Shown: positions 3,254 to 55,339 of the stretch, piece by piece
How positions within the stretch are numbered: position 1 is the stretch's first letter
Layout of the letters: each line of letters opens with the position of its first letter
Assembly: GCA_963662665.2 (NCBI GenBank)
Contig: CAXXJS010000010.1
Location: 192,001-256,000 of the forward strand
Length of the DNA stretch: 64,000 bases
DNA from: Candidatus Latescibacterota bacterium
GTDB lineage: Bacteria > Latescibacterota > UBA2968 > GCA-2709665
Direction of reading: 5' to 3'
Program-made: the position numbers and the translations under genes
Notes under the pieces: generated by a model
Database searches by the model: none
What the model was told of the DNA's origin: nothing
Seen by the model: only the letters and a program-made list of their open reading frames with translations

Positions 3254-3328
3254 TGGAGCCGCCCGGGGGGTTCGAACCCCCGACCTACGGATTACAAATC
3301 CGTTGCTCTACCACTGAGCTAGGGCGGC
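3254..3328 (-). tRNA. tRNA-Thr (UGU)
   Basis: Reverse complement GCCGCCCTAGCTCAGTGGTAGAGCAACGGATTTGTAATCCGTAGGTCGGGGGTTCGAACCCCCCGGGCGGCTCCA: cloverleaf, TGT anticodon, encoded CCA. Confidence 0.97.
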
Positions 3329-21638: not shown

Positions 21639-21937
21639 CCTTTCTTGTTTTTCCGATGGAATTTACATGGATGGACAGGATGCACAGGATAAGTACCCAC
21701 GGGCCGGAATACTTCCTCTTCCGGGTTGCAGCGATAAATCCGTCCACCATCGTCCGCGCAACATTGCGATAACCAGCACAATTGCAAGTGTTCAACGTCT
21801 GTCGTTTGTTTATACGCTACGATCGTTGAAAAACTACCGATTAACATCAGATCCACCGGTTCTCGTAAATCATTGAAACCTAGCGATCGAACCACCAACC
21901 TGCGCCATGGGGCGGGGCTCACGATAGGTCTACGCTT

Positions 21938-29526: not shown

Positions 29527-29634
29527 GGAACGTTCCCTTTGTGAAAAACGCCGGTTGACAGTTTTCGGGTCTTCCGGATAGAATCGTCAGAGGTTCCGAT
29601 TCGACTTTCCCCTCGAGTCTACATACGGCGCATC

Positions 29635-29831
29635 TAGCCTTGATTCGTAATTCTTCGGGGAAGTAAAACCGAATATATGCAAGAAGATAAAGACGATTTG
29701 ACTTCGGATTACCAGGATACACCAGGTCACTGGACGTGATCTGAAAAAACGTCCTCTTTGACGACCGTTACGCCCCGTTTCAGGGGTTTTCGTCGCGTCG
29801 CCGAGTTGCTGTTTTTTTAGAATTGAGGCTA
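29635..29831 (+). mobile_element. MITE family A, copy 1 (intron-free, 197 bp)
   Basis: TIRs TAGCCTTGATTCGTAA / TTAGAATTGAGGCTA; homologous to 55127-55324 and 42469-43420. Confidence 0.85.
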
Positions 29832-30917
29832 ACGTCCAGCGACGGCATCAGCCACCGCATCGCCCACTTCGTACGTCCTGGCGGCGCCTCCCAGATCGAC
29901 CGGGTGGTTCTTCGGATTGTCCAGCGTTCGATCGACGGCGCGGTCAATCGTCTCGGAAGCCGCGACGGCTTCAGGATCGTTGTGACGCGCTCCCAGCCAG
30001 GACAGCATCATCCCGGCGGAAACGATCTGGGCCATGGGATTGGCGATGCCCTTCCCGGCTATGTCGGGGGCGGTACCGTGGGAAGGCTGGAAGACGCCGT
30101 AGCGGTCGCCTACGTCGGCCGAAGGCGCCATACCCATCCCGCCGATGGTTGCGGCGGCCAGGTCCGATATGATATCCCCGAACATATTTTCCGCAACGAC
30201 AACGTCGTACCAGGCCGGGTTGCGCAGCTGATACACGGTGAATGCATCCACGTAGGCATAATCCCGTTCGATTTCGGGATACGATTCGGCGATCTCGTCG
30301 TAGATCTGCCGGAAAAAAGCCATACTCTTCAGAATGTTGGCTTTGTCAACGGAGGTGACGCGGCTCCTGCCGTCTGCGGGCGCCCCCTTCCGTTGTTTCG
30401 CGATTTCAAAGGCGTACCGGACGATCCGTTCGGTACCGGCGCGGGTGATGACCATATTGTCCACTGCAAGGCTGTCGCCCAGGCGGACCCCGGCGCCGCG
30501 AGAGGCGTAGAGTCCTTCGGTATTCTCACGCAGGATGACGTAGTCGAGCGGCGGATTCCCATCGAGAAGCGGAGGCACACCGCGAAATTTCCTGATGGGT
30601 CTGATCCCGGCGTAAAGGTCGAGTTCGAAGCGCAGTGTCAGTTGCGGGGCGATTTCCGTGCCGTCGGGAAACCGGATATCGGGGTCGCCCGCGGAACCGA
30701 AGAGCACGGCGTCGGCCTGCTTGCACGCGTCGAGGGTGGGATCGGGCAGGTCATTACCGGTTTCGGCGTAACACCTTGCGCCTACCTGGTGTTCGGAAAA
30801 GGTGAACCGGAGACCGGGATGCGGCTCCTCGAGCGCCAGGAGGACTTTAAGCGCTTCCCCCACTACTTCCGGGCCGACGCCGTCTCCGGGGAGTACCGCG
30901 ATGTTATACGTTGGCAT
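29829..30917 (-). CDS. Isocitrate/isopropylmalate dehydrogenase family protein
   Basis: LPGDGVGPEV, RENTEG, DKAN, NMFGDIISD, HGTAPDIAGKGIANP. Confidence 0.93.
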   Translation of the reverse strand: MPTYNIAVLPGDGVGPEVVGEALKVLLALEEPHPGLRFTFSEHQVGARCYAETGNDLPDPTLDACKQADAVLFGSAGDPDIRFPDGTEIAPQLTLRFELDLYAGIRPIRKFRGVPPLLDGNPPLDYVILRENTEGLYASRGAGVRLGDSLAVDNMVITRAGTERIVRYAFEIAKQRKGAPADGRSRVTSVDKANILKSMAFFRQIYDEIAESYPEIERDYAYVDAFTVYQLRNPAWYDVVVAENMFGDIISDLAAATIGGMGMAPSADVGDRYGVFQPSHGTAPDIAGKGIANPMAQIVSAGMMLSWLGARHNDPEAVAASETIDRAVDRTLDNPKNHPVDLGGAARTYEVGDAVADAVAGR

Positions 30918-42135: not shown

Positions 42136-42468
42136 GGCGGGCGGGGTGGGATGTGTATGTGCTGACGCTTGTTCAGTTTGCGAAATCTTACATGGATTCA
42201 AGTATTCCGGCGCGAGTTCATCGCGATAGCAGGAGAGTGTACTGCCCGGCGAGACGGATGAATGAAAGATGCTCGGACCACCTTCTACGCCGCAGGAGAT
42301 GCATCGCCAGGCTCCTGGATTTTCGGAGACTGGCACGCATTTTGCGGCCACAAACCCCAAGTACGTCCAGGAGTTTCGGTTTCGCGGCGGAATCTCAGAC
42401 CGGAGGATTTACGATCGGGCAGCCTCGCGAAAAACGCCATTGGGCGCCGCATACTGAAATTGGGTCTT

Positions 42469-43420
42469 TGGCCCCAATTCGAAAAAACAGCAACTCGGCA
42501 ACGAGATGAAAACCACTGAAACGGGGCGTAACGGTCGTCAAAAAGGACATTCTTTCAGTTCACGTCCAGTGACATGGTGTATCCTGTTAATCAGAAGTTA
42601 AATCGCCTTTATCTACTTGCCTAAATTCGGTTTTACTTCCCCGAAGAAGTAGAGTCGAGATGTGGCGCGGTGGTTTAGGAGTGGCCTGTCTGTTCCCGCC
42701 CCTTTCGTCTGGCGGTGCCTCAATAGCCCCTCCCTGCTCCGTTTCCACATCCCGCTCGTCGAACCGGACGTGCGGAGTTACCGCATCCGGCTCTCCGACG
42801 GACATCGCCTTCAGGTACACACTGCCCGATCTGCCCGGACAGCTTCACCTGAAACCTTAGCTTGATCTGGAGTCGCCTCGTCTTATTCTGGAGGAGGTTA
42901 TAGGCTTGCGCCACTCTCCCGACAGTTGTCCCCTTCACAAGCACATCCGAAGTCAGGCCCCTTTCCTCCGCCGGCGTTACCCGGCATCACAGGTACTACG
43001 AGCCTGTCCGCCACCCCATACGGCCCGGCCTGGCCCTCACGGGCTTCCGGTTGGTGGCTCTCCACCACCGCTGGGGCTTCCCGTGTTGCGTCGGATCTCC
43101 TTGTATGCGTGCCTCCGCCATTACCCCGGCGGGACCGTTGGGTGCTCTCGTTGCCTGCTTCCCCAACGACGGCGGCCTTCCCCGTTCGCAAGCCGGGTCG
43201 GCTCCCGCATTACCCTTTTCGAGGCCTGCTCAGCGTTTACTCACGTTTCAGCCCACATACTCGCCGAGTCGCCTGGCGACCCTCTACACCGGAGGCTTCG
43301 GAGATGTCGTTACCTACGTCTCCGCTCCGATTGCTTCCGACTGTGGCAACATCTGTCGGGTGGGACTCTCACCCACTGAAGTTCCGCGCCTTTTCACGGC
43401 GCACTTGCGAATCAAGGTTA
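42469..43420 (-). mobile_element. MITE family A, copy 2, interrupted by a group II intron
   Basis: 43405-43420 is the left TIR and 42469-42648 is the remaining body; joined, they restore the sequence of copies 1 and 3. Confidence 0.85.
42649..43404 (-). ncRNA. ORF-less group II intron (756 nt, class E-like long domain VI)
   Basis: 5' GTGCG, domain V GAGCCGGATGCGGTAACTCCGCACGTCCGGTTC, 3' end CTCGACTCTAC; EBS1 TTGCGA pairs with exon TCGCAA. Confidence 0.92.
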
Positions 43421-43506
43421 GCCTCTGTCATTATTGCATTTCCCATTGACAACGCGCGATTTTTACTGTTGTTTTAATCAATCGGCGCGAGAAGGGAAAA
43501 ACCGGA

Positions 43507-43872
43507 GTGAAGTGGGTGTCCATCTGGAGCGTCAAGGAAACTGACAGGGTTTTGTTTGGAGTTGTGTCGGTCCTGGTGTTCTTCATTGGTGCGTGGAATC
43601 TGGTTTCCAGAAAGAGCTGGTCCAGCCTTTATTTTTCCGAAGACTTAGTCATTTTGGGCGCCTGGTCGGTCACTGTCGCCTACTTCACAATAGGGGCCAT
43701 TGACATCATGGTTATGATCTTTGGGACTATGACTGAACTTGTGGCCGGATGGTATAAAAACAGGGTTCTCAAAAATGCGCGCGAAGAGATCCGGGAACAG
43801 GTTCGAGAGGAAGTCCTTCAGGAACTTCGGGAGGCCCGGCAGGACAAGACTGATGCGGGTGAAGTAAATTAA
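43507..43872 (+). CDS. Hypothetical membrane protein
   Basis: Two hydrophobic segments and a charged REE-rich tail; GGAG upstream; lower GC. Confidence 0.6.
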   Translation: MKWVSIWSVKETDRVLFGVVSVLVFFIGAWNLVSRKSWSSLYFSEDLVILGAWSVTVAYFTIGAIDIMVMIFGTMTELVAGWYKNRVLKNAREEIREQVREEVLQELREARQDKTDAGEVN

Positions 43873-55126: not shown

Positions 55127-55324
55127 TAAACCTTGATACGTAATTCTTCGGGGAAGTAATACCGAATATATGTAAGTGGATAAAGGCGATTTAACTTCTG
55201 ATTACCAGGATACACCAGGTCACTGGACGTGAACTGAAAGAATGTCCTTTTTGCCGACCGTTACGCCCCGTTTCAGGGGTTTTCGTCGCGTCGCCGAGTT
55301 GCTGTTTTTTTCGGATTGGGGTTA
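55127..55324 (+). mobile_element. MITE family A, copy 3 (intron-free)
   Basis: Near-identical to 29635-29831; ends AACCTTGATACGTAA / TTCGGATTGGGGTTA. Confidence 0.85.
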
Positions 55325-55339
55325 ATCCCGGTTTCTGAA

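Follow-up and report, generated by a model that had tools for sequence, protein, structure and literature searches.

In a 64,000-nt stretch of the genome of a Candidatus Latescibacterota bacterium (contig CAXXJS010000010.1, positions 192,001 to 256,000; hereafter "the window"), a 756-nt group II intron that lacks an open reading frame (ORF) interrupts a miniature inverted-repeat transposable element (MITE) that lacks a transposase gene. Eight copies of this intron are present in the genome under study (G000; 66 contigs, with 92% completeness and 5% contamination), and all of them are inserted after the same nucleotide of the MITE. We consider it likely that the intron spreads by repeated RNA-guided retrohoming in trans, with the MITE serving as a multicopy and harmless target.

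The preliminary description of this locus had proposed that the MITE has no transposase and is interrupted by a group II intron without an ORF; both the assignment and the boundaries held. On the minus strand the locus reads CTAA CCTTGATTCGCAA / GTGCGCCG ... TCGACTCTAC / TTCTTCGGGGAAG (a slash marks the intron insertion point here and below), so that the intron runs from 43404 to 42649. It matches the Rfam model RF02003 (group-II-D1D4-4) over model positions 1-138 of 138 with an E value of 2e-18, and an end-to-end match to RF00029 (domains V and VI; 42649-42795, model positions 1-77 of 77) covers its 3' part. The intron ends, 5' GTGCG and 3' CTAC, fit the group II pattern of 5' GUGYG and 3' AY, and domain VI is closed by GAG/CUC around a bulged A (42655), from which 6 nt lead to the 3' splice site. 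All catalytic motifs are present. The domain VI loop carries an insertion of about 75 nt, which is branched and is common to the ORF-less and full-length forms of the intron. An additional Rfam match inside the intron, to the thiamine pyrophosphate riboswitch (19.9 bits, E 0.46), was taken as chance.

The intron contains no reverse transcriptase (RT) ORF. In a full-length sister intron of the same genome, domain IV extends from nt 451 to about nt 1825 and holds the ORF (nt 493-1818); in the 756-nt intron it is replaced by a 155-nt stub. The motif GGGAGA..TGG..AGCCTA..ACCTCC, which surrounds the site of the sister's start codon, is kept in the stub in diverged form, with the ATG lost. Domain IVa is a protein-binding site in other group II introns, and by analogy the stub motif is a candidate for such a site.

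The eight introns are at least 99.7% identical (five are the same, two carry G671C and one carries T239C), and pairwise differences among them never exceed 2 of the 756 positions, which points to a very recent burst. Each of the eight follows nucleotide 13 of the MITE, counted from its left end, is oriented alike with respect to the element and lies between the 5' flank CCT[T/C]GATTCGC[A/T]A and the 3' flank TT[C/T]TTC. The preliminary description had placed the insertion 16 nt inside the element. It does lie within the element, but at a distance of 13 nt, since the count of 16 includes 3 nt of duplicated target. The insertion nucleotide is thus shared genome-wide, as that description had asked to be checked, with 56 full-length empty MITEs counted beside the occupied ones, and no copy of the small intron in this genome was found in an unrelated target. 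A crude look at the open frames of 11 intron loci revealed no frame of at least 180 codons spanning any copy. Two fragments have no RT gene nearby and are probably remnants of other introns: C5:13735-13948 shares 78% identity with intron nt 1-214, and C10:148815-148958 shares 70% with nt 1-136.

In contrast to the introns, the MITE bodies that host them have diverged, with identities of 88.0-96.9% (mean, 92.2%; 28 pairs). We therefore conclude that near-identical introns entered separately into pre-existing, diverged MITEs. Several occupied MITEs also have their nearest relative among the empty ones, with one empty MITE being 100% and another 98.4% identical to an occupied body. These data bear directly on the possibility, raised in the preliminary description, that the intron also moves as MITE cargo, i.e., that it was captured once by a MITE and that the composite was then multiplied by an IS1380-type transposase. 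Such a history would explain why all copies reside in one MITE family at one nucleotide, and an IS1380-family transposase gene with similar ends does exist on contig C57. However, it would not leave near-identical introns in diverged hosts whose closest relatives are empty. The insertion also interrupts the left inverted repeat at a distance of 13 nt from the tip, which should impair recognition by the transposase, and members of the intron family in sister species reside in repeats other than MITEs, each with a matching exon-binding site 1 (EBS1). The cargo proposal was thus not borne out, and we regard it as extremely improbable.

Which MITEs are occupied depends on the sequence that faces EBS1. 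The preliminary description had recognized EBS1 as TTGCGA (43186-43191), complementary to the 5' exon; this was confirmed, and the complementarity extends to 7 nt (EBS1 TTGCGAA with exon TTCGCAA). Pairing between EBS1 and intron-binding site 1 (IBS1) is complete (7/7) in six of the eight ORF-less copies and reaches 6/7 in the other two. Among MITE sites with the exon TCGCAA, 6 of 17 are occupied, as are 2 of the 3 with TCGCTA, compared to none of the 44 with any other exon variant. The probability that all eight insertions would fall within the TCGCAA and TCGCTA sites (20 of 64) is 2.8e-5, and it is 1.8e-3 when this set is widened to take in the 11 wobble-compatible TCGTAA sites. Occupancy thus follows the three variable exon bases facing EBS1. 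Empty MITE copies had also been noted close to the intron, and two were indeed found in the window (Table 1); the exon of the one starting at 29634, TCGTAA, would pair through a single G-T wobble, as had been stated.

If the copies had instead spread as DNA, through ectopic gene conversion or recombination among MITEs and without an RNA intermediate, 177 nt of homology would have been available on the 3' side of the insertion. On the 5' side, however, only 13-17 nt of sequence are shared. The initial bases of the 3' exon vary among occupied copies, and no flank was co-converted, since the occupied copy on contig C23 differs at +3 of the 3' exon and beyond. Neither the dependence of occupancy on three nucleotides that pair with EBS1 nor the covariation of EBS1 with the exon, which involves 15 types across the genus, would be expected from such exchange, and we consider it very unlikely.

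This covariation was assessed in 55 intron copies from 10 genomes, namely 11 copies from the genome under study, 26 ORF-less copies from seven sister genomes and 18 ORF-containing copies from four sister genomes. Two loci were left out of the EBS table, L086 of G002 (no intron boundary by pattern) and L059 of G009 (no EBS1 loop by pattern). The 55 copies contain 15 distinct EBS1 heptamers, which covary with the 5' exons, and 36 of the 55 pair at 7/7 positions, wobbles included. Over 42 nonredundant rows, mean EBS1 pairing was 6.14; when exons were shuffled 2,000 times, the mean was 3.85 and no value exceeded 4.71. A four-base EBS2 is proposed in the context CGAAAA-NNNN-AATGCG, with its best register at exon positions -14 to -11. 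The target read by the RNA would thus extend from -14 to -1, i.e., over the last A of the MITE's target duplication and the first 13 nt of its inverted repeat.

Two ORF-less copies in G009 occupy the identical MITE nucleotide and carry EBS1 TGACGA opposite the exon TCGTCA, while one copy in G006 lies in the inverted-repeat-like sequence CCTCAATTCGAAA and has EBS1 TTTCGAA; the variable exon triplets CAA, TCA and AAA are matched by the EBS1 5' halves TTG-, TGA- and TTT-. Further ORF-less copies in sister species reside in other repeats, each with a different and matching EBS1, which strengthens the RNA-guided reading. The target of one such subfamily, ATCCTGTNNATCCATG/TAARTT, has 15, 49, 16 and 59 empty matches in G000, G001, G007 and G009, respectively (reversed-pattern control, 0), and that of another, AAGCTGACA/ACTGCTCTTCCTGA, has 0, 10, 0 and 6. 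Because ATCCTGTNNATCCATG/TAARTT is a short motif of about 30-45 nt and not a MITE, the family as a whole is no MITE specialist.

In the window itself, positions 21660-21681 (minus strand) hold one of 15 copies in this genome of the short intergenic repeat ATCCTGTCCATCCATG/TAAATT, all of them empty. In sister genomes this repeat is the homing site of the EBS1 subfamily CATGGAT, of which G000 has no intron. Positions -16 and -15 are T and A in many unrelated targets of the intron family (e.g., TAACC, TAGCC, TAAAT and TAGCA), and this distal part of the exon may be read by the protein. In the MITE, the bases at -16 and -15 are supplied by the transposon's own target duplication.

A candidate helper for mobilization in trans is present in the same genome. 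The preliminary description had called for a search for a full-length sister with an RT ORF, and three such introns of 1,975 nt were found (C61:80849-82823, C24:8271-10245 and C16:124183-126157; loci L009, L023 and L022). They are 95% identical to the 756-nt intron over nt 1-450 and 96% identical over nt 606-756. Each contains an intact ORF for a 441-amino-acid protein, with matches to RVT_1 (125.6 bits), GIIM (50.3 bits) and TIGR04416 (354 bits; cutoff, 300). No endonuclease domain was detected in this protein, as Pfam gives RVT_1 and GIIM only and the protein ends 34 residues past GIIM. Between the ORFs on C16 and C61 there are 10 synonymous and 3 nonsynonymous changes; the helper gene is intact and under purifying selection. 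No further RT/maturase match was found at an E value of 1e-5 or below in the rest of this genome, 92% of which is represented in the assembly. The best plasmid matches of the protein are from Planctomyces sp. (65%) and Frigoriglobus (63%), and its best solved relative is the GsI-IIC RT (E 1e-53); all of these are general relatives. The C61 sister is inserted at the MITE site that the small intron uses, the C24 sister lies on the opposite strand in an inner MITE arm that mimics the inverted repeat, and the C16 sister is found at a non-MITE look-alike site, AACTTCGGATTCGGAA/TTCC.

Taken together, these results suggest a mechanism in which the intron would first be transcribed as part of a MITE-containing transcript. 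The RT/maturase of the 1,975-nt sister would then splice and package the 756-nt intron in trans, and the intron would reverse splice into other MITEs, with EBS1 TTGCGAA and EBS2 GGGT pairing to the first 13 nt of the element and the last A of the duplication. Since the helper protein has no endonuclease domain, we infer that a strand at the replication fork would serve as the primer, as described for endonuclease-less introns. Under this scheme, the intron would still be able to splice at present. Scanning positions 42200-43800 of the window for promoters and terminators gave no site of either kind; a stem, GGACGT..ACGTCC, followed by TTTTT within the MITE was spotted by eye only.

Several observations nevertheless weigh against repeated retrohoming in trans. 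The match to RF00029 scores 35.7 bits, below the gathering score of 40, a shortfall caused by the roughly 75 extra nt of the domain VI loop. Twenty-two compatible sites are still empty (11 perfect TCGCAA and 11 wobble-compatible TCGTAA sites), and two insertions reside in TCGCTA sites despite a mismatch at -2, so that pairing alone mispredicts site use. Covariation of EBS2 is weak (2.76, compared to a shuffle mean of 2.40 and a maximum of 2.71). Most importantly, none of the three sisters fully matches its own exon, as EBS1 and IBS1 pair at only 5/7 positions and are mismatched at -1 and -2 in each. EBS1 of the C16 sister, AATCGAA, would pair without a mismatch with TTCGATT, the exon of both the C61 and the C24 sister, but not with its own, while EBS1 of the latter two, TTTTGGA, pairs with the C16 exon TTCGGAA at 7/7 positions, three of them wobbles. 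Five of the 19 differences between the C16 and C61 introns fall in the 9-nt EBS1 loop, and the loops look swapped relative to the exons. This could reflect mis-phasing in the assembly, exchange between copies or helpers that are unable to splice in place. Because 12 of the 18 ORF-containing copies in sister genomes pair at 7/7 positions, we prefer mis-phased repeat interiors in the G000 assembly as the explanation.

The mispaired helpers and the empty compatible sites are also what would be seen if the introns were fossils of a past burst that no longer splice or move. Against this stand the recency of the burst, with at most 2 differences per 756 nt between any two copies, the intact helper ORFs with their predominance of synonymous over nonsynonymous differences, and the full set of catalytic motifs. 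A fossil origin therefore appears unlikely to us. The one RNA data set examined, run X19, is silent on splicing, since it yielded only intron-like contigs of 90-95% identity that derive from other organisms and left the MITE and its flanks uncovered.

The near-identity of the eight introns could also have been inflated by assembly polishing, and in the extreme case one intron sequence might have been pasted into several repeat-bounded gaps of this fragmented, incomplete and partly contaminated assembly. We checked this using short contigs assembled from four public runs, which break at repeat borders; none of them bridges either junction with 31 nt on each side. Nevertheless, in two runs from different studies (X1 and X5), a 612-nt contig leads from the unique 5' flank through 16 nt of the exon into 12 nt of the intron without a single difference. 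In run X1, contig depth is 83-98 for the intron and 9-13 for the unique flanks, a ratio of about 6-9 fold. In each of these two runs, one contig connects intron nt 450 with nt 606, the form that the full-length sister takes. Moreover, the copies are distinguished by G671C (two copies) and T239C (one copy), and the same architecture is found in closed genomes of sister species. We thus regard the probability of an artifact as close to negligible and retain repeated retrohoming as the likely explanation of the eight insertions.

The ORF-less form is not restricted to this genome. Full-length ORF-less matches were found in seven other genomes (13 in G001, 6 in G009, 3 in G007, 2 in G005, and 1 each in G006, G003 and G011), and the form is thus present in at least eight genomes of the genus, with G007 and G009 being closed single-contig genomes. 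Compared with 18 other distinct ORF-less sequences from these seven genomes, the domain IV stub is 87-97% identical to 14 and 74-75% identical to 4. Local alignment of the 5' part of the stub gave only a partial match to domain IV of the helper. Since the stub is alike among ORF-less copies and matches domain IV of the helper only in part, a single origin of the ORF-less form is indicated. In a tree built from nt 1-300, in which both EBS1 and EBS2 were masked, ORF-less and ORF-containing introns are interleaved, and the small introns of G000 group with their own helper; their core is 95% identical to that of the helper, compared to 80-93% identity to the ORF-less copies of most other species. 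As a lead only, this suggests exchange between ORF-less and helper forms. An alifold consensus of 19 distinct ORF-less sequences recovered domains I-VI, with 12 pairs showing compensatory double changes, 5 of them in the stub; since that structure was itself taken from this alignment, the pair counts are biased toward it and lend weaker support. Judged from these sequence comparisons, the ORF-less lineage is old and common to several species of the genus, and it appears to retarget by changes in EBS1. At one locus, L066 (G003:C52:27223-28347), the 5' exon is the 3' end of another intron, ...CCCTACTCTAC/GTGCGCCG, which gives tandem introns at a contig end.

The host element is 190 bp long, has terminal inverted repeats and is flanked by a 4-bp target duplication. 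A blastn search of the genome with the "spliced" locus returned 78 segments, comprising 56 full-length empty elements, 10 occupied ones and fragments. The bodies of the 56 empty MITEs measure 188-192 bp and contain no ORF; their tips form the imperfect inverted repeats CCTTGATTCG... and ...CGAATTGGGG. The flanking 4 bp are identical in 35 of the 56 (shuffle mean, 11.5; maximum, 21; 2,000 shuffles), including rare tetramers (TTCA three times; TCAA, CCAA, CGAA, TAGA, CTTA and GTAA once each). Because 4 bp match this often and a 5-bp match was seen in 0 of 56, we conclude that the duplication is 4 bp long; it is mostly CTAA or TTAA. The MITE was present in all 14 other genomes of the genus and in none of the 26 genomes searched outside it.

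The sole candidate found for an autonomous partner is a single complete 1,551-bp insertion sequence (IS) with a CTAA duplication on contig C57 (C57:49339-50889; L017, 140-1690). Its 459-amino-acid transposase matches the IS1380 family (NF033539, 215 bits; cutoff, 180) and PF13701. The likeness of its tips, CCTTAATTCCGCAA... and ...TTTTCGCATTGAGG, to those of the MITE is limited to about 14 nt per end, and the MITE is accordingly put forward on sequence grounds as a candidate deletion-type relative of an IS1380-family IS. One further fragment, of 343 bp, is found on contig C14. The left end of the C57 element, CCTTAATTCCGCAA/AAATC, resembles the intron target and is unoccupied. Among pairs of terminal inverted repeats 400-4,000 bp apart whose interiors were read for open frames, those on C23 and C61 bracket seemingly ordinary genes. 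In four places, MITEs adjoin or are nested in other MITEs (C9:10028-10323, C36:43131-43446, C30:42475-42736 and C24:7977-8270). The coordinates of the features in the window are collected in Table 1. Unrelated to the intron, a tRNA gene lies at 3257-3328 on the minus strand (RF00005, 74.8 bits).

Table 1. Parts of the interrupted MITE, its intron and the two empty MITEs in the window.
Feature	Position	Strand	Remark
Left 4-bp target-site duplication, CTAA	43418..43421	-	Its final A corresponds to position -14 of the intron target
First 13 nt of the MITE, left inverted repeat CCTTGATTCGCAA, 5' exon	43405..43417	-	IBS1 TTCGCAA at -7..-1
IBS2, ACCT at -14..-11	43415-43418	-	Begins with the final A of the target duplication, which lies outside the MITE
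ORF-less group II intron, 756 nt, 5' GTGCG to 3' CTAC	42649..43404	-
Domain I core	43241..43378	-	RF02003, 89.7 bits (gathering score, 49)
Proposed EBS2, GGGT in CGAAAA-GGGT-AATGCG	43212..43215	-	Pairs with exon ACCT at -14..-11; weak covariation, best register
EBS1, TTGCGAA	43185..43191	-	Last 7 nt of the 9-nt hairpin loop in CCCG-GCTTGCGAA-CGGG
Domain IV stub, intron nt 456-606	42799..42949	-	In place of the ORF-bearing domain IV
Domain V, GAGCCGGAUGCGG-UAAC-UCCGCACGUCCGGUUC	42761..42793	-
Domain VI with loop insertion of about 75 nt	42652..42757	-	Candidate branch-point A at 42655
Remainder of the MITE, 177 nt, 3' exon	42472..42648	-	Ends in the right inverted repeat ...TTTTCGAATTGGGG
Right target duplication, CCAA	42468..42471	-	One mismatch to CTAA
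Empty MITE, CTAG CCTTGATTCGTAA TTCTTCGG...	29634..29832	+	Exon TCGTAA, one G-T wobble with EBS1
Empty MITE, TAAA CCTTGATACGTAA...	55127..55325	+	Exon ACGTAA

Comparable systems have been described. The closest is that of Thermosynechococcus elongatus, with ORF-less TeI3 and ORF-containing TeI4 group II introns, where 17 ORF-less introns share one deletion, there are six EBS families, and mobilization by "driver" proteins has been shown experimentally (Mohr, Ghanem and Lambowitz 2010, PMC2882425). As in that system, the ORF-less lineage described here would derive from one event in which the ORF-bearing part of domain IV was lost, its copies outnumber the ORF-containing ones, its families have diverged in EBS with matching target sites, and it would be mobilized in trans by the protein of a related intron, which was an experimental result there and is proposed here. 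The present case departs from TeI3/TeI4 in that insertions go mainly into the inverted repeat of a MITE (and, in sister species, also into short intergenic repeats), no endonuclease domain is detectable in the helper, the lineage extends over several species of a genus and has retargeted many times, and the stub is far more diverged from domain IV of the helper than the ribozyme core is.

A transposable element as the target is known from Sinorhizobium meliloti, where RmInt1 homes into ISRm2011-2 and RmInt2 homes into ISRm17 (Toro et al. 2018, PMC5894124; PMC4615759). Similarly to RmInt1, whose natural target is also a multicopy transposable element (PMC5894124), the intron family described here encodes a protein with RT and maturase domains and no DNA-binding/endonuclease domain, a likeness at the level of domains; occasional ectopic sites with a similar IBS also occur in both, as exemplified by the C16 site AACTTCGGATTCGGAA/TTCC. 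Whereas RmInt1 is autonomous and resides in an autonomous IS630-family element, both the intron and its apparently IS1380-derived host are nonautonomous in our case. Dai and Zimmerly are said to have described, in 2003, ORF-less group II introns of Methanosarcina that are nested in other introns, beside RT-encoding relatives. If so, these would resemble the present introns in coexisting with RT-encoding relatives and in homing into other mobile elements, but they are archaeal and reportedly target intron ORFs rather than the inverted repeats of a DNA transposon. IStrons likewise associate a ribozyme with a DNA transposon, in that a group I intron is fused to an IS element as one chimeric unit that moves by transposition (PMC4227781); here, in contrast, the ribozyme belongs to group II, and intron and MITE move separately. 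In the full-text literature, with most subscription journals and supplements lying outside the search, we found no account of a bacterial MITE serving as the homing target of a group II intron. The system thus combines two known behaviors, an apparently trans-mobilized ORF-less intron and homing into a multicopy transposable element, in a new pairing.

A broader proposal, to which we give somewhat less than an even chance, is that the ORF-less introns form a long-lived, genus-wide lineage of parasites of parasites that is specialized on neutral repeats, tracks them, stays compatible with its helpers and limits the MITEs. Its targets may comprise the inverted repeat of the IS1380-derived MITE in this species and two sister species and short intergenic repeats elsewhere, and it may follow variation in these repeats by changing the 5' half of EBS1. 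Compatibility with the helper may be maintained by exchange of the ribozyme core, with the domain IV stub remaining lineage specific. Each insertion probably disables the MITE that it enters, and the intron may thereby limit the spread of the MITE.

The genus thus offers a natural system for studying how group II introns without an ORF can persist and multiply when they depend on the reverse transcriptase of another intron, and how fast they retarget. The roughly 15 EBS1 variants and their matching sites over the sister genomes constitute a data set on the target rules of an endonuclease-less intron. Our results further indicate that a MITE can act as a safe harbor for a retroelement. If the intron inactivates the MITEs that it enters, as is probable, IS, MITE and intron would form a parasite hierarchy of three levels.

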